Below, in pieces: positions 13,802 to 33,187 of a stretch of 57,504 nt of DNA. The notes below the pieces were generated by a model, which searched no databases, had not been told where the DNA came from, and worked only from the letters and a program-made list of their open reading frames with translations. The stretch covers positions 190,140-247,643 of the forward strand of contig JBMNNJ010000002.1 of assembly GCA_050953885.1 (NCBI GenBank), in the 5' to 3' direction. Made by a program: the position numbers and the translations under genes. Source of the stretch: Patescibacteria group bacterium (lineage in GTDB: Bacteria > Patescibacteriota > Microgenomatia > 0-14-0-10-38-17). Position 1 is the stretch's first letter. Each line of letters opens with the position of its first letter.

Positions 13802-15433
13802 ATGGCCGAAGAAAAAAATCTTTCCCCCCTTCTGGCGCGCCTAATTCAAGACTATTGGCAAGCGGTCGAAAAAAGCCGGCAAAAAAAACAAGAGGCCACA
13901 GTAAACGTTGATGAAATCGCTTCAAAGCTGGCTGTTTTTTACGAAAAGGTCCGCAAAGTGGTCGACTGGAAAGAAGAAAACCTGATTCGCCGCTCCGCTA
14001 TTGAGCGTTATCTTCGCCGCCAGCTGGTTGGCGAAATTTCCCAGTTTTCTCTTAAAAAAAATATCAACAGCCAAGAGGTAGCGGAAACAATCGTCGCCGA
14101 TTTGGTCCGGGGAGGCTATCTGAAAAATGGTCAGGTGCCGCAAAGTAAGGTAGGCGAGGTAAAAAATATCTTAGAGCGCTATCTTTTTCTCCTTAATCTT
14201 CTTTCCCGCCAAATCCCAGAAAAGGAAGTTAAAGAAAGAGTTAACCAGTCGGTTTGGCTTTTCTCCCAGGCGGCTTGCGAAATTGAAAAAACCCTCGATC
14301 CTGGCTTTCGTCAGGATCTCTTGATTAACTTTATGTTTGACTCTTTAAAAACGCGCCTTGCCTTGGACCCGCAATTAAAAATTGAACCTCAAGAGGCCGA
14401 GGTACAGCTTTATATTGCCGTCTGCCAAAGTCTTTTTAGCCTTGATGAGGCAGAAATTACCTCGCGACTACTTCCCCTTTATTACCCGCAATGGCAAACC
14501 CCCGACGAGAGCCTTAATATCCGCCAAATAAGGGAAGAAATTGCCCAAAAATTTAACCACCCCTTAGCCAGCCAATGGCAAAAAATTTGCCGTCAGGAAA
14601 AGGCGATTTTTTTAATTTTAAGCGATATTTTTAAGGAAAAAGAAAAAGAAGCGAAAAACTTTCAGGAATTCTGGGAGCAATTCGCGGTGCCGGATAATTT
14701 TCAAGCCGCCGTGGAAGAAGCGTATCAAAAGCGGTTTTCCACCCTTAAGTCGCGGCTTTTTAGAACCGCCATTTATTCCACCCTTTCCATTCTCATTGCC
14801 AGCCTTTTTTCGCTCTTAATTTTGGAGTTTCCGCTGGCAAAATTAATCTATGGCCAATTTTTACCATTAGCGATGATCATTGATATTCTTGTTCCCACTC
14901 TCTTGATGTTTCTTTTAGTAGCTTTGATCAGGCCGCCAAAAGAGGAAAATTATCAGCGATTAGAACAAAAAATTTTCCAATTAGCTTACGAAGAAGGAGG
15001 AGAAAGCTATTTTTTAAAACCAAGCAGGCCGCAAAGCCTTTTAAGCAAAAGCCTTTTTGCCTTTCTTTATCTTCTCGTTGCCACCTTGGGAATAGGCCTG
15101 ATTGTCGGCATTTTTTATTTTGCCAACGTGCCACCCACCTCAATTATTTTAGACACCATTAATGTGGCGATGATTATTTTTGCCGCCCTTTCTATCCGCC
15201 AAAGCGCGAAGGAAATTGATGTTGACGAGAAAGAATCTTTTTTCGAGTTTTTTCTTGACACCCTTTTTGTGCCCGTGGGCCGCTTAGGCCAGTGGTTTTC
15301 CCAAAAGTGGCGGGAGTATAACGTGGCCAGTGTTTTTTTAAGTGTTTTAGTGGATCTGCCTTTTTCTTCGTTAGTTACCTTCGTGGAAGACTGGCGCGCT
15401 TTCCTACGGGAAAAGCAGGCGGGAATTCATTAA
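13802..15433 (+). CDS. Hypothetical integral membrane protein (soluble N-terminal ~320 aa + ~5 TM C-terminal part)
   Basis: Long uninterrupted ORF with several clear hydrophobic helices after aa ~320. No family recognised. Confidence 0.5.
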   Translation: MAEEKNLSPLLARLIQDYWQAVEKSRQKKQEATVNVDEIASKLAVFYEKVRKVVDWKEENLIRRSAIERYLRRQLVGEISQFSLKKNINSQEVAETIVADLVRGGYLKNGQVPQSKVGEVKNILERYLFLLNLLSRQIPEKEVKERVNQSVWLFSQAACEIEKTLDPGFRQDLLINFMFDSLKTRLALDPQLKIEPQEAEVQLYIAVCQSLFSLDEAEITSRLLPLYYPQWQTPDESLNIRQIREEIAQKFNHPLASQWQKICRQEKAIFLILSDIFKEKEKEAKNFQEFWEQFAVPDNFQAAVEEAYQKRFSTLKSRLFRTAIYSTLSILIASLFSLLILEFPLAKLIYGQFLPLAMIIDILVPTLLMFLLVALIRPPKEENYQRLEQKIFQLAYEEGGESYFLKPSRPQSLLSKSLFAFLYLLVATLGIGLIVGIFYFANVPPTSIILDTINVAMIIFAALSIRQSAKEIDVDEKESFFEFFLDTLFVPVGRLGQWFSQKWREYNVASVFLSVLVDLPFSSLVTFVEDWRAFLREKQAGIH

Positions 15434-15546
15434 AATAAGGGAAAATACGGGAGAATACGGGAAAGATAAGGAAAAAATAAGAGAAAAATAAGTTTGAATA
15501 AACTATATCGTTAACCGTAACCCTTAAAAACTCACTAAACTTTTCT

Positions 15547-16383
15547 ATGGATCTTAAAAAACTGCTTAAAAGCCTTGACTTTGAAAACACCGATTGGGAA
15601 AAATTTGCTTGGCAAGAATTGGACCTTGATTGGGAAAATTTTCTTTCCTGGGATCTGTCTTTTCTAACCTCTGACGAGATTGGCAAATTAAACAGCCTCC
15701 ACGGTGCTTGGCTGATTTACGGGAAACCCTCCCGTAGCTCTCCCGTAGCTTCCCGTAATCTCCCGTTTGCTATCCCAAGCTTGGAAAAAATTGACTACCA
15801 GTCCCAAAACCCCCGCGGCTATCGCGCCTTGGCCCTTTGGCAAACCGCCAATCTCCTTTATGATTTTCTCAGACTTTTTACCCCCACCCTCCCCCCTTAT
15901 GAACATCGCCTTAAAGCCCAAGCCGACGACGCCGGCCGCAGTATGGTCGCTAACATTGAGGAAGGTTACGCCCGCCCCACTACCTTAGAATACTTGGAGT
16001 TCTTGGGTTTTGCCTACGCTTCCTGGGCAGAAGCAGATGGCGACATAGAACGTCTCCATAGTTTAGGCTATTTAAAATCTGTTGCCGGCTCCGGCTTGGC
16101 ATCCTTAGACATTCCCACACCGGCTCCAGACCGGCCCTATCCTCCCCTGGCTTCCCGTCAAAATCCGGGAAAATACGGGAGCTTAAGGGAAAAACTACGG
16201 GAATATACGGGAAAAAATATCAGGCCGGAGGAATTAACTTATGAGGCTTTCAAAGAACTTTCCAATAAAACCGGCTATCTTTTTAAAAAGACGGCGGAGG
16301 GATTGAGAGGAAAAATCATTAGGGACGAGAAAAGAGGGCTGGAGGAGAAAATGGAAATTATCTGGAGGAAATATTGGGGATAA
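15547..16383 (+). CDS. Four-helix-bundle (IVS-protein-like) domain protein with repeat-derived flanks
   Basis: The core YRALALWQTANLLYDFL...LKAQADDAGRSMVANIEEGYARPTTLEYLEFLGFAYASWAEADGDIERL matches the 4HB/IVS-protein pattern. cccgta/tacggg word runs lie in frame at 15728-15768 and 16150-16215. Confidence 0.55.
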   Translation: MDLKKLLKSLDFENTDWEKFAWQELDLDWENFLSWDLSFLTSDEIGKLNSLHGAWLIYGKPSRSSPVASRNLPFAIPSLEKIDYQSQNPRGYRALALWQTANLLYDFLRLFTPTLPPYEHRLKAQADDAGRSMVANIEEGYARPTTLEYLEFLGFAYASWAEADGDIERLHSLGYLKSVAGSGLASLDIPTPAPDRPYPPLASRQNPGKYGSLREKLREYTGKNIRPEELTYEAFKELSNKTGYLFKKTAEGLRGKIIRDEKRGLEEKMEIIWRKYWG

Positions 16384-24931: not shown

Positions 24932-24997
24932 AAACTTCTTCTAACGGCTTTTATTATAACATGAAAAAACTGTTAAACTGTTAAATTGTTTCATTGT

Positions 24998-25888: not shown

Positions 25889-26932
25889 ATGAAAGAGGCT
25901 CTTCTTTGGGAAGAAAAACCCCACCAAGCGGTTCGCTGTCTTGCCTGTCACCATTTTTGCCAAATTGCCCCGGGCCAAACCGGTGTTTGCGGGGTGCGGC
26001 AAAACCAAAATGGTCGGCTTTATTCTTTGGTTTATGGCCAGGCGGCCGCCATAGGTATTGATCCGGTGGAAAAAAAGCCTCTTTTCCATTTCCTGCCGGG
26101 CAGCTTGGCTTTCTCCTTCGGCACCCTCGGCTGTAATTTTTCCTGTCTTAACTGCCAAAACTGGGAAATTTCCCAACTTGCTAACCAAAAGAGGAGGGTG
26201 GAAAATTATCCCCGCCTTTTTTGGGGAGAAAAGCTAAGGCCGCCGCAAATTGTCAACCTTGCCCGCCAAAATCAGTGCCTCTCTATCGCCTACACCTATA
26301 ACGAACCGACCGTCTTTTTGGAATACGCCTTGGCAACGATGAAGCTGGCCCGCCGGGCCGGCTTAAAAAACATCTGGGTTTCCAATGGCTTTATGTCCTC
26401 AAAAACATTAGATTTAATCCTGCCTTATTTGGACGCGGCTAATATTGATATTAAATCAATCAAGGAACAGTTTTATCAAAAAGTCTGCGGCGCCAAGCTG
26501 GCACCGGTTTTGGAAAACTGCCAAAGGCTGGTTAAAGAAGAAGTTTGGCTGGAGGTAACCACCCTAGTTATTCCCACCCTCAACGATAAGATTGCTGTCT
26601 TAAATAATATTGCCGGCTTTATTAAGGAAAAATTAGGCGACGCTGTTCCTTGGCATTTAAGCGCCTTCTCGCCCGCGATTTCCTGGAAACTAAAAGACCT
26701 ACCCGCCACCCCGCCGACGACAATTAAAAAAGCCCGTCAGGAAGCTTTAAAAAAGGGCCTAAAATATGTTTACGCCGGCAACTTAGGACCATCTTCCGGC
26801 GACGATACCCTTTGCCCCGCCTGCGACCAGTTGGTGGTTAAACGCCGCGGCTACGAAATTACCCGCTTTGACCAAAACGGCCACTGCCCCAAATGCGGCC
26901 AAAAAATTGAAGGATGGTGGAGTTTCAAATGA
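25889..26932 (+). CDS. amrS: AmmeMemoRadiSam system radical SAM enzyme (AmrS)
   Basis: VRCLACHHFCQIAPGQTGVCGVRQN.NG.LYSLVYG, the radical-SAM cluster GCNFSCLNCQNWEISQ, and a C-terminal Cys4 knuckle CPACD...CPKCG. Confidence 0.8.
   Translation: MKEALLWEEKPHQAVRCLACHHFCQIAPGQTGVCGVRQNQNGRLYSLVYGQAAAIGIDPVEKKPLFHFLPGSLAFSFGTLGCNFSCLNCQNWEISQLANQKRRVENYPRLFWGEKLRPPQIVNLARQNQCLSIAYTYNEPTVFLEYALATMKLARRAGLKNIWVSNGFMSSKTLDLILPYLDAANIDIKSIKEQFYQKVCGAKLAPVLENCQRLVKEEVWLEVTTLVIPTLNDKIAVLNNIAGFIKEKLGDAVPWHLSAFSPAISWKLKDLPATPPTTIKKARQEALKKGLKYVYAGNLGPSSGDDTLCPACDQLVVKRRGYEITRFDQNGHCPKCGQKIEGWWSFK
26752..26922 (+). repeat. Direct repeat copy 1 (attL-like): functional 3' end of amrS
   Basis: Aligns with 33017-33187. 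26831-26907 is identical to 33096-33172 (77 bp). The flanks differ by scattered substitutions. Confidence 0.9.
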
Positions 26933-27043: not shown

Positions 27044-27052
27044 TGATATAAT
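27044..27052 (+). promoter_or_regulatory. Possible extended -10 promoter element (TGaTATAAT) for the island cassette
   Basis: tgatataat lies 37 nt upstream of the CYTH ATG. No good -35 was seen. Confidence 0.3.
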
Positions 27053-27088
27053 GTTGCCTGACCGTTTAAGCTAACACATTTTTTGACC

Positions 27089-27667
27089 ATGCCCGATAAC
27101 TCTAAAAAACAAATCGAGATAGAATTAAGGTCTCTTTTGGACAAGAGAAAATATGTTGCCCTCAAAAAATTTTTAGATACTAACGCAAAAAGTTTAGGTA
27201 AAGATGATAAGGATGTCTATTTCTTCCTTCTGCCCGATAGAATCGTCAAGGCGGTTAAAAATATTTCTCAAAAAACAGCCAAAATCGTTATTAAACTTAA
27301 TCGCCTGGGGAGAGGAAGGAGTGACTTTGAGGAGATAGAGATCCCTATTTCGCCTCTTGATTTTGATAAGGCAGTCAAGCTTTTCTCCTCTCTTCGTTTT
27401 GATCAAATTCAAAACTCCTATCAAACAAGACAAAATTATCTTTACGAAGGGGTTGAGATTGCCTTAAAACATACCGATTCGTGGGGCTACCACATGGAGC
27501 TTGAAGTTATTATTGATGATCTTTCAAAAAAAAATGAAGCGGAGAGAAAAATATATCAAGTCGCCAATAAGTTGGGAGTAAAAATTATGACGGAAGAGGA
27601 AATCACCGAATTTGCCCAAAAAATTGACGCGCAATATAAAAAAGGTATTTATAAAAAATCAAAATGA
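27089..27667 (+). CDS. CYTH-domain protein (triphosphate tunnel metalloenzyme / class IV adenylate cyclase-like)
   Basis: N-terminal ExExK-type motif (IEIELR), alternating charged beta-strand pattern, late HMELEVI motif, ~190 aa. Confidence 0.65.
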   Translation: MPDNSKKQIEIELRSLLDKRKYVALKKFLDTNAKSLGKDDKDVYFFLLPDRIVKAVKNISQKTAKIVIKLNRLGRGRSDFEEIEIPISPLDFDKAVKLFSSLRFDQIQNSYQTRQNYLYEGVEIALKHTDSWGYHMELEVIIDDLSKKNEAERKIYQVANKLGVKIMTEEEITEFAQKIDAQYKKGIYKKSK

Positions 27668-28191
27668 GCTTAATATCTTTGGCAGAAAAAAATAATTTGC
27701 CCTCACTTCAATTAATGGACAAAGAAACTCTTGGCTGGATAAAAAGCAACAAGCCGAACTTTAGTTCCGGGCTGGCAATTAATAAATATTCCCGTGCTAT
27801 CAAAACCGACCTTCTTCGTTTTTCGCCTCCTGATTCCTGGTTCCAAGAAAAAAATCATATCAGTTCACTTCACGGCGTACGCCACATTCTTCGGGTTATA
27901 GCTAACGCTTCTTACCTTGCTCAAGAAAATAAAGTAAGCAGCCATTTAATAAACAAGCTGCTTGTTGCCGCTTCCTTACATGATTTAAGGCGAAAAAATG
28001 ATAAAGGTGATCCGGGCCATGGCCAAAGGGCGGTTGAATGGCTAAGTATTAACAAAAGTAAAGTCTGCAAACAATTTCATCTAAATTTTGACGAAAAAGA
28101 TTTTATAGATATCAAAAGCGCTATCTTACTTCATGAAGCCCCCTATGATCAATTTGATAAGAAATTCGCGTATACCTATGACGCTAAAAAG
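27664..28191 (+). pseudogene. HD-domain phosphohydrolase, 5' part (interrupted by IS)
   Basis: SSLHGVRHILRV...AASLHDLRR (H...HD) and LLHEAPYD. The frame is broken at 28192 by the IS terminal repeat. Confidence 0.75.
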
Positions 28192-29296
28192 GGTGATGTG
28201 CCAAGACATTGTATCCACTCCAAGGGCCTAGTTTTACCGAGACATCATCAAGGATAATCGGTTGTACATAACGTATGTTATCATCAATCTCTGGTAATTG
28301 CATTTTCAGATATTGGTAGGGTATTTGATAGTCTAAGGATGAGTGTTCCCGGACATTGTTGTAGTAATAAATGTAACCCAGGGCCTCATTCAAGAGATCT
28401 TTTTTGCTCTTAATCTGTAGGACCCTGGGAATGTAGAACTCTTCGTCATCGGTTCTATGGCTTCTTTCCAAATGAGCATTCTCCTCAGGATGACCTTTGT
28501 GGTTCTGGATTAATCTACAGCCAAAACCCCTGATCAGTTTTCTTAACTCTTTGACCTTCAACCAGGATCTACCCCCAAATTCCTCACCATTATCAACAGT
28601 AAAGGCAATCTCTGATTTAACCCCATGAGACCTTAACCAGGAAATAGTCCAAAGGTAAAAACACAAACCATTAGTCCAAGATTTTTCCTTGGAATAAGCA
28701 ATTAGTTTAAACCTAGAGTTAACATCCAGGGCTCCCCATTGATAGTTGGGAATATCATATTGGTTAAGATGAATAATTTGCTTTTTAGTCAGGGCTTTCT
28801 GATCCCTAATGAATTTGATATCCATTTGGACAATCTCAAAAGGTTTGGCTGAATACCAGTCAACAAACTCCCTTGGTTGTTTTCTTCTCTTGTTTGATTT
28901 TAGTTTGTAAGTAAGCCTGTCTTTATTCCTCCTTAGAATGTGCCTGATTGTTCCTGGAGGAACAAGAATCCCTTCATGTTTCTCAAGGTAGCGTGATAAT
29001 CTTTTTGGCCCCAGGTGGGTTTTGTTCTTGGCCTTAATGACTTTACCTTCTGTCTTGGCTGGTGTCTTGTTGGGCTGGTGTTTTGGTATCTTGGGTCTGT
29101 CTTTAAGATTGCCCTCTTTGCTTTTTGCCAAGATGTCATAAACCACTGTCCTGTTGACCCTAAAAACCCTGGCGGTATCAGCAATGTTGTGGCCATTAGT
29201 CTTTAGATACTCAATCACTGTTTGTCTGGCTGCTTCTGGATTAATCTTTCTTAATTCCTTGTAGTCTATCCGGATTCCATGGATTCCAGGACTCAT
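28184..29296 (-). CDS. IS transposase: N-terminal HTH + integrase-core (rve) DDE domain; IS481/IS3-superfamily-like, family not resolved
   Basis: IVQMDIKFI (D), AFTVDNGEEFGG (D) and HPEENAHLERSHRT (E) with typical spacing. The ORF reads through the left IR and stops 6-8 nt into flanking DNA. Confidence 0.85.
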   Translation of the reverse strand: MSPGIHGIRIDYKELRKINPEAARQTVIEYLKTNGHNIADTARVFRVNRTVVYDILAKSKEGNLKDRPKIPKHQPNKTPAKTEGKVIKAKNKTHLGPKRLSRYLEKHEGILVPPGTIRHILRRNKDRLTYKLKSNKRRKQPREFVDWYSAKPFEIVQMDIKFIRDQKALTKKQIIHLNQYDIPNYQWGALDVNSRFKLIAYSKEKSWTNGLCFYLWTISWLRSHGVKSEIAFTVDNGEEFGGRSWLKVKELRKLIRGFGCRLIQNHKGHPEENAHLERSHRTDDEEFYIPRVLQIKSKKDLLNEALGYIYYYNNVREHSSLDYQIPYQYLKMQLPEIDDNIRYVQPIILDDVSVKLGPWSGYNVLAHHPF

Positions 29297-29414
29297 GCTT
29301 TTTCACCCCCTTTACTACACTCTCAAAATTAACACCCACCAATTTTAACACTCTTCTTACATATTCCTCATACCCAAACCTCATGAAGTGTATAGCATGT
29401 CCTGGACACCGCAC
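28192..29414 (-). mobile_element. Insertion sequence (~1.22 kb) with rve-type DDE transposase, imperfect ~35-bp terminal inverted repeats and 5-bp target duplication
   Basis: The left end ggtgatgtgccaagacattgtatccactccaaggg matches the reverse complement of the right end, gtgcggtgtccaggacatgctatacacttcatgagg. AAAAG is present at 28187-28191 and 29415-29419. Confidence 0.75.
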
Positions 29415-29419
29415 AAAAG

Positions 29420-29650
29420 ATTATTGACTTATTAAAATCCGCCGATGCTTTAGATAGATACAGGCTACCCAAGATAAAATGGTGGATTAACGATAAGTAT
29501 TTAGCTTTATCCCCGTCTGACGACGCAAAGAAATTTGCTTATGAGTTGGTCTTAGAAAGTGAAAGTAATTTTTTAAAAACAAAAAAGAATCTCCCGTCAG
29601 TTTTGTCGGCTCTTAATTTACTAGAAAAAAAATATGGATCAAAGCAATAA
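29420..29650 (+). pseudogene. HD-domain phosphohydrolase, 3' part
   Basis: Translation: IIDLLKSADALDRYRLPKIKWWINDKYL... Removing 28192-29419 joins ...YDAKK to IIDLLKSADALDR in frame. Confidence 0.7.
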
Positions 29651-31034
29651 CCTTATTTCGCAATGGGCAGATGCACATGTTTTTTATAACATGTATTTAC
29701 ATAAACCTGCAAAAAACGCTCCTGAAATTGAGAAAGAGGAATTTTTGTGGAGGGAAAAACTAATTTCCGAATCACCAAACGAGCAGTTAATAACCCAAAA
29801 TTCTTTTTTTGAAACACTAAAAAAATCAAGCAAAATCTATTTGGCCCATATAACTTACAACCTAGACAAAATACTGGCTAACAAAAGAATTTTCCCAAGC
29901 GGCGGCTGTTTAACAGGCAGTATTTACTGTGTCCCTGTTGTCCCGGAAAACAGAAAATTAAGAGTTCATAATTTAGGCGTCTACCTTTCAGAAGTAGAAG
30001 CGCCCATGATGGCGCAAAAGATAAACAGTAAAAAGCAACCTGATGTTTTGCTTTTTGAAATTAAAAACAGCAAAAACAATCACCATAACCTTATCGGCAT
30101 TGATTATTTGCGCATGGGAGAAATACACTATTCTATTTACAAACAGCTGGAATATCTTCTTTCATACAAAGAGCGCTCTAATCTTTACACCATTGTTATC
30201 TCAAGAGTCAAACAATCACTGGATTATTTAAGCCTCTGTACGCAAACAGCAAGCCCTTTTGATAGTCTTGATGTTGATTATTTTCTAAATTGCTTTATTA
30301 ATACGATTTCGTCGTTACCCATCTTGGGCTATTTATATTTTGAAGTAATCTCGGAATATTTAATGTTGTTCCAAGACAACAATGAGGCAAAAAAATATTT
30401 TGAAAGAGGAGAACTTTATAACCCTACTTATAAAAACTTAATGTACGCCCTTCATCCTAAACTTAAGCAAAATTTTAAGTTAAACAGTTTTCAGCCTTCT
30501 ATCAAAGGCTTAATCATCTATTTAGAGCAAAGTAAAATCTTTACTAATTTTGATTCTAAACATTTTAAAGATTGGTTATGCAGGCGCTTAATATATCTTA
30601 CTAATGCGCGCTTAATTGATGGATCCGGGGGCGAGACAGACTGGCGCCGAATCTGTTGGGATTTTGATAATTTAGCCAAATATGTAAAGCCGTTGCTAGG
30701 TCATTTAATTCACCGGGAGCTTAGAAATTTTGGGCGTTACCCCAGCTTTTACTTCTACTTTGACCAAACTAAAGCCCTACAGGTTTGGAATTATTGGAAT
30801 CATATGGATATTGAAATTCCATTTAATGGTGTAATTCCCAAGGGCGAAGTGGGCATTAATCCTGCGTTCCCAAACTTAACATACAAGGTTTTTAAGTGTA
30901 AATATTATGCGGAGAATTCCGGATTTAGATATCTGGAGCCAGTAAAAGAACTAAAAATAGACATCGAGACAAAACTCATTAATCTTCGCTATTCCGGCAT
31001 GCATTCTAAGCAGAAACAAATAAAAAGGAGCTAA
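29634..31034 (+). CDS. Hypothetical 466-aa protein, no family recognised
   Basis: Long ORF in the AT-rich island, overlapping the HD gene end by 17 nt and followed 3 nt later by the next gene. No TM helices or known motifs were confidently seen. Confidence 0.55.
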   Translation: MDQSNNLISQWADAHVFYNMYLHKPAKNAPEIEKEEFLWREKLISESPNEQLITQNSFFETLKKSSKIYLAHITYNLDKILANKRIFPSGGCLTGSIYCVPVVPENRKLRVHNLGVYLSEVEAPMMAQKINSKKQPDVLLFEIKNSKNNHHNLIGIDYLRMGEIHYSIYKQLEYLLSYKERSNLYTIVISRVKQSLDYLSLCTQTASPFDSLDVDYFLNCFINTISSLPILGYLYFEVISEYLMLFQDNNEAKKYFERGELYNPTYKNLMYALHPKLKQNFKLNSFQPSIKGLIIYLEQSKIFTNFDSKHFKDWLCRRLIYLTNARLIDGSGGETDWRRICWDFDNLAKYVKPLLGHLIHRELRNFGRYPSFYFYFDQTKALQVWNYWNHMDIEIPFNGVIPKGEVGINPAFPNLTYKVFKCKYYAENSGFRYLEPVKELKIDIETKLINLRYSGMHSKQKQIKRS

Positions 31035-31037
31035 ATC

Positions 31038-31679
31038 ATGAATAATAAAGAAGGAAGGGTCTATCTGGTTGGGGGAGTAAACGGAGTAGGCAAATCAAGC
31101 CTACTACAAGAAATATCTGCCAACTATCCAGAATTTGAAGTATTTAAAGGTTCGGCAAAGTTTATGGAATGGCTAGGGTTACCCCCGGGTGATTATAAAG
31201 CTCTCCAAGAGTTGCCGGATGATTACAAAAATCTTGAAGTTTGTAAAATGATGATGCAAATTTTTAAAAGTAAGCCTCGCCCGGGAAAGACACTCCTAAT
31301 TGACGCCCATTATTTTAATTACAAACAAGGGGCTCTTATTGACGCCACCGGCGAGTGGGTTTCTTTTTTGGACGCTCTATTTGTTGTTTTAGCCCCCCCG
31401 GAAACAATTCTCCAAAGATTAGAACTTGACCAAACAACAAAAGATCGAGCAAGAGACATCCTCCCTCCTAACGCAGATTACAATAAAAAAATCGAAATGT
31501 TATATGGTTTTATTCAGGCGACAATTAATAAGGCGCAAGAGTTATCCCAAAAATACAAGATCCCTTATTTTTTAATTAATAACGGTTCTGAAGGATTCGG
31601 TCATGCGGTAGAAGAATTCTTGGGATATCATGCCGTTATCAATTCTAATATAAGTTCAAAAATAAATGACCAAAAATAA
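31038..31679 (+). CDS. P-loop nucleotide kinase resembling archaeal-type adenylate kinase (AdkA-like)
   Basis: Walker A VGGVNGVGKSS, then LLIDAHYFNYKQG...ALFVVLAPPETILQRLELDQTTKDRARD. This parallels the AdkA pattern (VAVDTH...IIVVETTGDEIL.RR..D.TR.RD). An RBS (aaaaaggag) is present. Confidence 0.6.
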   Translation: MNNKEGRVYLVGGVNGVGKSSLLQEISANYPEFEVFKGSAKFMEWLGLPPGDYKALQELPDDYKNLEVCKMMMQIFKSKPRPGKTLLIDAHYFNYKQGALIDATGEWVSFLDALFVVLAPPETILQRLELDQTTKDRARDILPPNADYNKKIEMLYGFIQATINKAQELSQKYKIPYFLINNGSEGFGHAVEEFLGYHAVINSNISSKINDQK

Positions 31680-32406
31680 TATCAAAGACATCCAAAAGCT
31701 AGAATCAATTGCCATTAACCTGCTCAACAGTGGTAATGTCACTCACGGCTTAGGTCGATCCCTGCGTGGTTTGCTTGGGGAAATTGCTGTTTATAAAAAT
31801 CACATTAATAGTCTTCCTCGGCTTAAATCTTACTTAAACACGCAAAGCTATAAAAATGTCCAAGTTGGAGGGGGAAAACATTTCTTAAAAGGTTTTATAA
31901 ATATCGATATCGTCCCCCCAGCAGATATTATTTTTGATGTAAGAGAAGGATTGCCTTTGAAAACAAATTCTACTGATTTTATTTTTTCTGAACACTTCCT
32001 CGAACATATAGATTACCCTCTATCGGTAAATAAGTTCATTAGTGAATGCTACAGAATATTAAAAAAAGAAGGAAAACTTGTTATCGGCGTTCCAGACAGC
32101 CAGTTAATAATCTCGGCATATGTGAAAAAAGATAAAAAGCTATGGGAACAAATGATTAAAAAGTGGTATTCAAACAGAAATTGCTTAGAACACTTTAATA
32201 CTTATATCGACTTGGTAAATTACCATTTTAGAGATCAGGACGATGATTTTAAATATCACCCCCATTTTTGGGCTTATGATTTTGAGAAATTGAAATCTCT
32301 CCTCACAGGCGTTGGCTTTATTAAGGTTAAAAAATGGAAATTTAATAAAGCCATCGCCAACCCCAAAAGAAAATGGGGAAGCCTCTATGTTGAAGCATTA
32401 AAATAA
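31666..32406 (+). CDS. Class I SAM-dependent methyltransferase (Methyltransf_11/23-like)
   Basis: VQVGGGKHFLKGFINIDI (motif I), DFIFSEHFLEHI, ECYRILKKEGKLVIGVPD. Confidence 0.75.
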   Translation: MTKNNIKDIQKLESIAINLLNSGNVTHGLGRSLRGLLGEIAVYKNHINSLPRLKSYLNTQSYKNVQVGGGKHFLKGFINIDIVPPADIIFDVREGLPLKTNSTDFIFSEHFLEHIDYPLSVNKFISECYRILKKEGKLVIGVPDSQLIISAYVKKDKKLWEQMIKKWYSNRNCLEHFNTYIDLVNYHFRDQDDDFKYHPHFWAYDFEKLKSLLTGVGFIKVKKWKFNKAIANPKRKWGSLYVEALK

Positions 32407-32409
32407 AAA

Positions 32410-32937
32410 ATGAAAGAAAGACAAAAAATATTTGAAGCAACGCAAATCGCCATAAAAGAACGCCTTGAGAAAACTGAAGATCAGTTGCAAGGCAATACTT
32501 TTAATATGAGGAATCTTGATATGGACGGCGACATGATGGATGATCCTCTGCTACACAGGTTAATGGCAGAACGAATACGATTAGAAGATGAGATAAGCGA
32601 ACTTAAAGGATATTTGGGAAATGAGACAGAGGTCTTGCGTCACCCAGAGCAAAATGGTTCTATCTCACTTGGGCACTTAGTGCATGTAAAAATAAGATAT
32701 CCAAATGGGGAAATGGAAGAAACGAGAGTTTCTCTCGGAAGTGCACTTGATAAAAGATATTTATGGCAAGATGAAGAAAACAACAACCCAAAACATATCT
32801 TAATCTCGCAAGATAGCCCACTTGCTCAAGCATTAATCGGAAGAAAAATTGGCGATACTGTTCTATACCAAGCCCCTGAAGGACAAGGAGAAATCATAAT
32901 TTTAGAAGTAGAAGATTCTCCGTTTCTTAAGAAATAA
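32410..32937 (+). CDS. GreA/GreB C-terminal-domain protein (Rnk / nucleoside-diphosphate-kinase-regulator-like)
   Basis: N-terminal coiled-coil-like region followed by GHLVHVKIRY...ISQDSPLAQALIGRKIGDTVLYQAPEG..EIIILEV. This matches the GreA-C fold signature (S..SP.G.AL.G...GD.v). Confidence 0.55.
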   Translation: MKERQKIFEATQIAIKERLEKTEDQLQGNTFNMRNLDMDGDMMDDPLLHRLMAERIRLEDEISELKGYLGNETEVLRHPEQNGSISLGHLVHVKIRYPNGEMEETRVSLGSALDKRYLWQDEENNNPKHILISQDSPLAQALIGRKIGDTVLYQAPEGQGEIIILEVEDSPFLKK

Positions 32938-33016: not shown

Positions 33017-33187
33017 AAGGGGCCTCAAACATGTTTACGCCGGTAACTTGGGACCATTTTCCGGCGACGATACCCTTTGCCCCACCTGCGGTCAATTGGT
33101 GGTTAAACGCCGCGGCTACGAAATTACCCGCTTTGACCAAAACGGCCACTGCCCCAAATGCGGCCAAAAAATCGCCGGTTGGTGGGG
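33017..33187 (+). repeat. Direct repeat copy 2 (attR-like)
   Basis: See 26752-26922. The 77-bp identical core is 33096-33172. Confidence 0.9.

Follow-up and report, generated by a model that had tools for sequence, protein, structure and literature searches.

Enzymes that act on nucleotides underlie several systems of phages and of the cells they infect. Phage examples include the dCTPase, dCMP hydroxymethylase and deoxynucleoside monophosphate kinase of T4, the dCMP methylase of XP12 and the hydroxymethyldeoxyuridine of SPO1. Such base-replacement and hypermodification pathways, including those for thymidine hypermodification, follow an enzyme logic that operates at the level of the nucleotide (PMC5889632, PMC8989533), and the CYTH and MazG triphosphatases of jumbo phages have been proposed to degrade unmodified nucleoside triphosphates (NTPs; PMC7824862). 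Among bacterial defences, depletion of deoxynucleoside triphosphates (dNTPs) is brought about by dCTP deaminase or dGTPase (bioRxiv 10.1101/2021.04.26.441389). The cassette described here lies in a 57,504-nt stretch of DNA (the window) from a Patescibacteria group bacterium (GCA_050953885.1, contig JBMNNJ010000002.1, 190,140-247,643, forward strand) and comprises six co-directional open reading frames (ORFs) at 27083-32937, which encode, in this order, a CYTH protein, an HD phosphohydrolase, a 466-aa protein without known relatives (the orphan), a kinase, an S-adenosylmethionine (SAM)-dependent methyltransferase (MTase) and a Gre-like protein. We put at roughly one in two the probability that this cassette is a mobile pathway that works on cellular nucleotides, with pyrimidine (deoxy)nucleotides as the likeliest substrates, and not an immune system of sensor and effector.

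The evidence that carries this reading comes from the company that the orphan keeps in other genomes. Orphan homologues occur in ~170 of 185,579 species genomes, and the window proteins were compared by tblastn with 80 genome loci that contain one, plus loci added later, to give a tally over 15 candidate phyla radiation (CPR)-type and 76 actinomycete loci (Table 1); pre-called genes were used for the latter because crude ORF calling is unreliable in high-GC DNA, and metagenomes were scanned with an alignment of the orphan subfamily (A8). The CYTH, HD, orphan and MTase genes are present in essentially all of ~90 loci from Patescibacteria and Actinomycetota, and in 11 CPR and ~70 actinomycete genomes they run in one direction with little space between them. 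CPR loci without CYTH, HD or MTase are either cut by a contig end or are the two (L005 and L011) in which a ThyA-like gene occupies exactly the usual MTase position. The two nearest relatives, whose orphans are 69% and 63% identical to that of the window, have the order Gre-like, CYTH, HD, orphan, AAA_17 kinase and MTase, so all six families are again found side by side, the Gre gene lying at the opposite end of the operon. In actinomycetes the block consists of two divergent NUDIX genes followed by a nucleoside diphosphate kinase (NDK) paralog, a 99-aa TPR-like protein, CYTH, HD, orphan and MTase, and its flanks are unrelated between genomes; carriers of the cassette among actinomycetes include Streptomyces laurentii, Streptomyces sp. 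NBC_01220 and Carbonactinospora thermoautotrophica.

Table 1. Number of loci in which each gene family accompanies the orphan.
Family	CPR-type loci (n=15)	Actinomycete loci (n=76)
Orphan	15	76
CYTH	14	76
HD	14	76
MTase	12	76
AdkA-like kinase	11	0
Cytidine deaminase	6 (Pfam 2.7e-10)	0
Gre-like factor, adjoining the cassette	6	0
Second MTase	4	17
ThyA-like	2	0
NDK paralog	0	74
NUDIX	2 (CPR-type query)	64 (NUDIX136 query)

An earlier interpretation of the same DNA, made from its letters and ORFs before any database search (the sequence-only reading), had proposed a six-gene unit and had considered that the genes might never co-occur elsewhere. The comparison across genomes removes that doubt, and it also alters the unit: CYTH, HD, orphan and MTase are conserved together, whereas the kinase and the Gre-like factor are additions seen only in CPR bacteria, and actinomycetes carry NDK and NUDIX genes in their place. 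The unit is therefore redefined here as an HD-orphan core with CYTH and MTase, to which lineage-specific kinases, Gre-like, NUDIX, deaminase and ThyA-like genes are joined.

Protein fusions tie the members of the core to each other. One homologue joins HD and orphan in a single protein (P0168, locus L086), and a NUDIX-HD-orphan triple fusion forms a single 933-aa ORF (L099, 6465-9266), whose neighbours encode a HAD hydrolase, an APH-like kinase, a protein with a phosphoribosyltransferase (PRTase) domain and a ThyA-like gene product. The HD protein and the orphan form an obligate pair. In two further loci (L087 and L104), HD and orphan are accompanied by NUDIX, by a member of the same MTase family and by genes for a Tmk-like kinase and a ThyA-like enzyme, and ThyA-like genes occur in seven related loci in all (L005, L011, L087, L099, L102, L103 and L104). 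Taken over the whole family, the variable partners are cytidine deaminase, ThyA-like enzymes, Tmk-like and APH-like kinases, PRTase, HAD, the NDK paralog, NUDIX and sugar-nucleotide enzymes. All the recurrent partners are small-molecule enzymes of nucleotide metabolism, and the more specific ones among them (deaminase, ThyA-like and Tmk-like) are the basis for the assignment to pyrimidines.

Several of these loci hold additional genes. In the two loci with a ThyA-like gene in the MTase position, a second, divergent CYTH gene (34-36% identity to the window protein) stands directly 5' of the kinase (L005 12032-12562; L011 5303-5821). In a Woesebacteria locus the MTase and Gre-like genes are separated by one for a carbamoyltransferase of the NodU/TobZ type (Carbam_trans_C, 1e-70; L002 11827-13461), which may supply an extra tailoring step. 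In the actinomycete block, the 219-aa member of the divergent NUDIX pair (L081 6089-7155, with equivalents in L092 and L093) has an N-terminus that resembles an XRE-type helix-turn-helix (HTH) by eye and has no Pfam match there; this protein may be a nucleotide-sensing regulator. An uninterrupted single ORF of 4266 aa (P0260, L085 237-13037, Logan SRR22388275) contains a divergent orphan domain together with epimerase, ROK kinase, DHQS-like and HAD modules, two PRTase-like modules (one matched by Pfam, one recognised by eye) and, by eye, a motif of the pol-beta-type nucleotidyltransferase, and short ‘RSExR’ stretches are repeated between its modules.

The gene content and linkage, the fused proteins, the mobility and the lack of a known relative of the orphan are observed; which substrates are used, in what order the reactions run and what purpose they serve we infer as follows. 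The CYTH triphosphate-tunnel enzyme, or elsewhere NUDIX or HAD enzymes, would take an NTP down to the nucleoside monophosphate (NMP) or nucleoside, and the obligate pair of HD protein and 466-aa enzyme would then transform the base or the nucleotide. A one-carbon group would be added by the SAM MTase or, in some versions, by the ThyA-like enzyme encoded at the same gene position, and the product would be re-phosphorylated by the AdkA-like NMP kinase, by the NDK paralog in actinomycetes, or by Tmk-like or APH-like kinases in other versions. The role given to the CYTH enzyme agrees with that proposed for the triphosphatases of jumbo phages (PMC7824862). The resulting non-canonical (d)NTP might protect the cell once built into its own nucleic acid, or might poison or starve a replicating invader, while the Gre-like factor would adapt or proof-read an RNA polymerase that faces the modified nucleotide or template. 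The product could also be an exported antimetabolite, and the presence of a Gre-like factor would suggest that RNA polymerase encounters what the pathway makes. A more specific proposal, which is tentative and which we hold to be possible but rather doubtful, is that the 466-aa family represents a new enzyme fold that performs, with its HD partner, a novel nucleobase or nucleotide transformation, and that this gives cellular genomes (the islands and plasmids of Patescibacteria and Streptomyces) a version of the hypermodified nucleotides of phages, either as self-protective chemistry of DNA or RNA or as an antiviral nucleotide, to which the Gre-like factor tunes RNA polymerase. If the pathway reading is right, the fusions and the list of partners narrow the search for substrates to pyrimidine mononucleotides, so that the chemistry of the orphan would be directly testable.

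Several observations weigh against a pathway of this kind. Genes for a ThyA-like enzyme and for a deaminase are both missing from the cassette in the window, so for this locus the assignment to pyrimidines is derived from its relatives. The chemistry of the orphan is not inferable from a structural or sequence relative, the activities of all the components are predicted, and the MTase might modify a sugar, a phosphate or a macromolecule. There is no polymerase or transglycosylase dedicated to the pathway that would tie it to DNA or RNA, and the actinomycete versions lack both the Gre-like factor and the kinase. In addition, paralogues of the orphan (31-34% identity) are located on linear plasmids of Streptomyces and Nonomuraea, where they are accompanied by SAM MTases, dTMP kinase, NUDIX, radical SAM and TauD-family dioxygenase genes, GT2 and GT4 glycosyltransferases and nucleotide-sugar enzymes (a nucleotide-sugar dehydrogenase and an epimerase); with such neighbours, the common denominator may be the chemistry of sugar nucleotides or nucleoside natural products. 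On the Nonomuraea plasmid (NZ_CP107854.1, L090), a gene for a 3'-5' exonuclease lies immediately 3' of the orphan paralogue, and ~5 kb 3' of the paralogue (15369-15959) is one with the annotation ‘Pycsar system effector family protein’.

These plasmid neighbourhoods bear on the alternative that fares best, namely that the cassette is a small gene cluster that makes a nucleoside or pyrimidine antimetabolite directed against competitors or against the host of an epibiotic CPR cell, with NUDIX, HD and Gre-like proteins as self-protection. The logic would be that of bacimethrin or mildiomycin, in which a ThyA-like hydroxymethylase, a glycosidase-type enzyme, an O-methyltransferase and a kinase cooperate, and it would be served by the ThyA-like, MTase, kinase and PRTase partners, by the glycosyltransferases, dioxygenase, nucleotide-sugar enzymes and radical SAM genes around the plasmid paralogues, and by the WhiJ/BldB-type modules (HTH_31, DUF397 and HATPase_c_2) that often adjoin the block in Streptomyces. 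However, no exporter is conserved with the cassette, the same four-gene core is found in tiny CPR genomes, a NUDIX-HD-orphan protein would be an unusual union of resistance and biosynthetic genes, and no family of characterised biosynthetic enzymes is matched beyond the level of generic superfamilies, so we consider this explanation unlikely, though the least so of the alternatives.

The signature gene of the cassette is the orphan, in which the sequence-only reading saw no recognisable family, and this description withstood every search made. Neither Pfam, NCBIfam, PADLOC nor PHROGs contained a match to its sequence, comparison with the sequences of the Protein Data Bank (PDB) gave none for the single sequence or for a 91-sequence profile, and no Pfam family matched any of the 91 members. 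Its AlphaFold2 model (predicted local distance difference test, pLDDT, 89.9; predicted template modelling score 0.91) begins with an alpha/beta domain, followed by an extensive helical body and, at the C-terminus, a beta unit, and in Foldseek searches with the full model the best E values were 0.85 (PDB) and 0.25 (BFVD); since the helical body might swamp the prefilter, the N-terminal domain was also modelled separately (pLDDT 75), and it likewise had no match. Foldseek matches of the orphan to MuF-type minor capsid proteins and to a nucleotidyltransferase substrate domain had probabilities of at most 0.12 and are distrusted. Assignments as an ADP-ribosyltransferase (H-Y-E), a papain-like or a caspase-like enzyme (H72/C92/Y98/E122) were rejected, as they had no structural support and C92 is not invariant.

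The family that the orphan defines is nevertheless large and strongly constrained, with 475 homologues in a 90%-clustered database (296 representatives at 50% identity) and 42-72% identity between Patescibacteria and Streptomyces. Across 91 sequences 43 residues are invariant, and conserved stretches include SGGC, HNLG, LEYLLS..ER, GHLIHRELRxFGRYPxFYFYFDQxKAL and PKGExGINP. In the wider family the invariant residues are H72, T74, S89, G91, H112, N113, G155, E237, K267, G356, G404, E405 and P410, and C92 varies. Given this strong conservation of polar and aromatic residues, the orphan is judged to be an enzyme, predicted from its sequence and without recognisable relatives.

The other five products had been given domain assignments that were, for the most part, upheld by profile comparisons. 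The CYTH protein scores 38.4 bits against PF01928 (1.5e-9; cut-off 23.2), has the archaeal CYTH proteins 1yem, 2dc4 and 2een as its nearest solved relatives and keeps the tunnel residues that are retained in 20 homologues (EIELR at the ExExR position, K, F.E.E, R, K and H.E.E), with arginine in place of the lysine of the ExExK motif. Its score against the CyaB equivalog TIGR00318 (44.5 bits, 1.5e-11) misses the cut-off of 57.95. By its Pfam score and tunnel residues the first gene product is a bona fide CYTH-domain protein, which may be a cyclase or a triphosphatase. The HD protein remains under the Pfam cut-off of 22 (14.6-15.5 bits against PF01966), but it is recognised as an HD phosphohydrolase by the ligand pattern H..H..HD..D..D..H..H..D, invariant in 17 homologues (alignment A3; H71, H75, H107, D108, D114, D117, H120, H158 and D185, numbered by its first sequence, that of locus L001), and by matches of the family profile to the HD structures 2pq7 (1.5e-4) and 4mcw, an HD-GYP protein (1e-3).

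The kinase matches AAA_17 (39.1 bits, 1.1e-9; cut-off 27), and the best matches of its family profile (A4) in the PDB are archaeal adenylate kinases (1nks, 5.3e-10 over residues 8-156; 6ln3, 6e-9 over residues 7-199), as the name AdkA-like implies; its score against the AdkA equivalog NF003122 is 13.5 bits (cut-off 155). The class I MTase is identified by PF08241 (35.9 bits, 1.2e-8; cut-off 21.2), its motif I (Q-I-G-G-G-x-H) is invariant, CPR and Streptomyces copies are 45-59% identical, and the PDB structure that its profile finds, 1vlm (2.8e-6), is itself uncharacterised. Of the description GreA/Rnk-like, the GreA_GreB C-terminal domain holds (PF01272, 43.0 bits, 4.6e-11; cut-off 26.9) and residues 6-166 align to residues 6-153 of Gfh1 (2eul, 6.2e-6), whereas the protein falls short of the GreA, GreB and Rnk equivalogs (PRK05892, 47.8 against a cut-off of 126; TIGR01462, 45.8 against 139). 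The tip of its coiled coil reads D-x-x-G-D-x-x-[HD]-D-[NP] and differs from the canonical Gre tip, and the factor would be predicted to bind in the secondary channel of RNA polymerase.

Features of these proteins can also be read as those of a second-messenger or alarmone module, in which the orphan or CYTH protein makes a signal, HD and NUDIX enzymes degrade it and the Gre-like factor or another target reads it, possibly as an abortive-infection switch. This reading, improbable in our judgement and more so than an antimetabolite cluster, would draw on the resemblance of the HD-orphan and NUDIX-HD-orphan fusions to a synthetase-hydrolase architecture, the relation of the CYTH protein to CyaB, the dinuclear-type ligand set of the HD protein and its HD-GYP match, the location on islands and the linkage of a Gre-like factor in 6 of the 15 CPR loci, for which DksA, a secondary-channel factor that acts with ppGpp, offers a comparison. 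On the other hand, the CYTH score lies below the CyaB cut-off, no effector domain is present, Pfam and Foldseek searches link the orphan to none of the RSH, CD-NTase, GGDEF and cyclase folds, and the deaminase, ThyA-like, Tmk-like, PRTase, MTase and NMP kinase or NDK partners would go unexplained.

The six genes stand on a horizontally acquired island, as had been proposed for this locus, and two properties agree on this: the GC content of the cassette genes is 0.34-0.39 as against 0.45-0.49 in neighbouring genes, and the low-GC segment is bracketed by a direct repeat of 169 bp (155 of 169 identities, 92%, by blastn; Table 2). With a copy on either side, the ~6.1 kb between them is an insertion, and the repeat constitutes an att-like signature of that event. 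No integrase, tRNA or Rfam element was found within the window, and integration at a tRNA or non-coding RNA gene was dropped as an explanation for want of such a match. The tight packing on which the view of a single unit was based was verified for all six ORFs, with spacings of -4 (CYTH/HD), -17 (C-terminal piece of HD/orphan), +3 (orphan/kinase), -14 (kinase/MTase) and +3 nt (MTase/Gre-like). An extended -10-like element, TGATATAAT, had been put forward as the operon promoter and is indeed present 31 nt 5' of the CYTH start, but the TGnTATAAT motif occurs twice in the window where 1.25 occurrences are expected by chance, so this match is positional and carries no statistical weight. The second occurrence is intergenic, on the minus strand at 24953-24961, upstream of an rnpA-yidC gene string.

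Table 2. Features of the cassette and its boundaries (positions in the window).
Feature	Position	Strand	Remarks
Left repeat copy	26752-26920	+	3' end of radical-SAM gene 25889-26932; left island boundary
Extended -10-like element TGATATAAT	27044-27052	+	Read in the sequence
CYTH/triphosphate-tunnel protein, 194 aa	27083-27667	+	PF01928 (CYTH); alternative ATG at 27089
HD phosphohydrolase, N-terminal ~176 codons	27664-28191	+	HD ligand set; cut by the insertion sequence (IS)
IS transposase ORF	28184-29296	-	NF033577, rve_3 and HTH domains
Probable IS481-family element, ~1219 bp	28192-29410	-	Interrupts the HD gene after ~codon 176
HD phosphohydrolase, C-terminal ~79 codons	29411-29650	+	ADALDRYRLPKxKWW motif; 17-nt overlap with orphan start
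Orphan, 466 aa	29634-31034	+	Signature gene; conserved family without known relatives
P-loop NMP-kinase-like protein	31038-31679	+	AAA_17; nearest to archaeal-type adenylate kinases
Class I SAM MTase	31666-32406	+	Methyltransf_11 (PF08241)
GreA/Gfh1-like factor	32410-32937	+	GreA_GreB C-terminal domain
Right repeat copy	33017-33185	+	Orphaned pseudo-3'-end of radical-SAM gene; right island boundary

As the sequence-only reading had noted, one component is knocked out by an IS element, namely the HD gene, which is split by a probable member of the IS481 family. The transposase matches NF033577 over its full length (5.2e-39; 134.5 bits against a cut-off of 224), the termini of the element begin GGTG..CCA[AG]GACAT, with terminal inverted repeats read by eye, and the 9-bp duplication that flanks it, GC[TA][AC]AAAAG, is imperfect (7/9). 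The reading frame of the transposase passes the end of the element (region 28184-29419), such that its stop codon lies inside the flanking duplication. The window holds a single copy of the element, and when this copy and one of the 9-bp repeats are excised in silico, the HD gene encodes a 252-aa protein that is colinear with 16 intact homologues. With its HD gene split, the pathway is probably inactive in this window, while the fitness cost that had been read into the same event rests on a single insertion and is speculation.

Both the island and the insertion argue against a simpler account, that ordinary salvage or house-cleaning genes are merely clustered here, for example to sanitise modified nucleotides taken from hosts. 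Deaminases, kinases, nucleotidases and NUDIX proteins are the classic enzymes of salvage and sanitation, and CPR bacteria rely on salvage; yet the cassette is rare and patchy, it resides on islands, in regions resembling integrative and conjugative elements (ICEs) and on plasmids, it always includes an MTase or ThyA-like enzyme together with a highly constrained enzyme without known relatives, and it is dispensable here, as its split HD gene indicates, all of which makes this account very unlikely. Least probable of all, and dropped in its Pnkp/Hen1 form, is a role in RNA-end healing or modification, or in formation of a cap-like 5' end (CYTH as triphosphatase, HD as 2',3'-phosphoesterase, kinase, MTase, and orphan as ligase or nucleotidyl-transferase), to which a superficial match of enzyme classes (triphosphate-tunnel triphosphatase, HD, P-loop kinase and SAM MTase), the ability of NUDIX enzymes to remove RNA caps and the tie to transcription through the Gre-like factor would lend themselves, but the kinase resembles adenylate kinases and not polynucleotide kinases and has its place taken in 74 of 76 actinomycete loci by NDK, an enzyme of free nucleoside diphosphates, profile and Foldseek searches found no signature of Hen1, ligase or capping enzymes, and the deaminase, ThyA-like, Tmk-like and PRTase partners are mononucleotide enzymes.

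The nucleotide pathway favoured here also has to be set beside the original proposal of a nucleotide-centred conflict or defence system. That the cassette is nucleotide-centred, mobile and unclassified stands, but the defence part does not follow from its content, in which all components are small-molecule enzymes and neither sensor nor effector is found; in particular, no nuclease, NADase or pore-type effector is present. In agreement with the statement that the combination corresponds to no named defence system, a search of the six proteins against PADLOC-DB v2 gave no system match and nothing significant (best HEC-02B, 0.003, and mad2, 5.8e-5, over a partial MTase region), with no match at all for the orphan, HD and Gre-like proteins, and searches of the literature for this gene combination found no description. 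The orphan cassette was not found in the 50,697 records of cultured phage genomes in INPHARED and has no PHROG, and only two contigs in IMG/VR match, both with the actinomycete block. Neighbours of the actinomycete block include a relaxase, SPDY genes, a type II restriction-modification system and a HATPase_c_3 protein (L081), an IS481 transposase, an excisionase-like HTH protein and a PIN/PhD pair (L083), an SNF2 protein with a C5-MTase and Vsr (L092), and an integrase, IS21, IS110 and an RHS toxin (L093). Such island neighbours make a defence role plausible; they are compatible with an accessory and possibly conflict-related function, for which they are circumstantial evidence.

The cassette can be compared with several known systems. 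Its CYTH protein is like the CyaB class IV cyclases and the triphosphate-tunnel triphosphatases in domain and tunnel residues, but differs from CyaB by its equivalog score below the cut-off and by the arginine in ExExK. Its Gre-like protein shares with GreA, Gfh1 and Rnk a C-terminal domain that exceeds the Pfam cut-off and a full-length alignment to Gfh1, but is distinguished by its linkage to the cassette, an island-like GC content, scores below the equivalog cut-offs and a different tip. RelA and SpoT are bifunctional alarmone enzymes, and the fusion proteins P0168 and that of L099 are like them in having an HD hydrolase domain N-terminal to a second domain; the orphan, however, was linked neither to the synthetase fold of RSH enzymes nor to a nucleotidyltransferase of any kind by Pfam searches of 91 members or by Foldseek.

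With the dNTP-depletion defences the cassette family shares a deaminase and an HD-family hydrolase in accessory islands, and its HD and CYTH proteins could couple triphosphohydrolysis to the cleavage of inorganic triphosphate. Those defences differ in being single-gene systems with larger, recognisable proteins, of which PADLOC finds none in the cassette, and the anabolic steps of the cassette (kinases and MTase) argue that something is made, beyond depletion alone.

The closest likeness is to phage base replacement, with which the cassette and its relatives have in common an enzyme logic of NTP pyrophosphatase or triphosphatase, deaminase, NMP kinase and NDK; a C5 one-carbon transferase of the ThyA-like kind is encoded in the seven related loci and absent from the window. 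The differences are that the cassette, known from its genes alone, contains a pair of HD protein and orphan that is absent from the phage pathways, that most of its versions use a SAM MTase and not a folate enzyme, and that it is encoded by cells, on CPR and actinomycete islands, in ICE-like regions and on linear plasmids. If the proposed function is correct, the cassette would be a cell-encoded, mobile counterpart of nucleotide-modification pathways so far known mainly from phages, common to ultra-small CPR bacteria and Streptomyces and built around an enzyme family that counts several hundred members, is under strong constraint and has no entry in Pfam (nor as a DUF), the PDB or defence databases, and the repeated linkage of a Gre-like factor would hint at a new connection between modified nucleotides and RNA polymerase.

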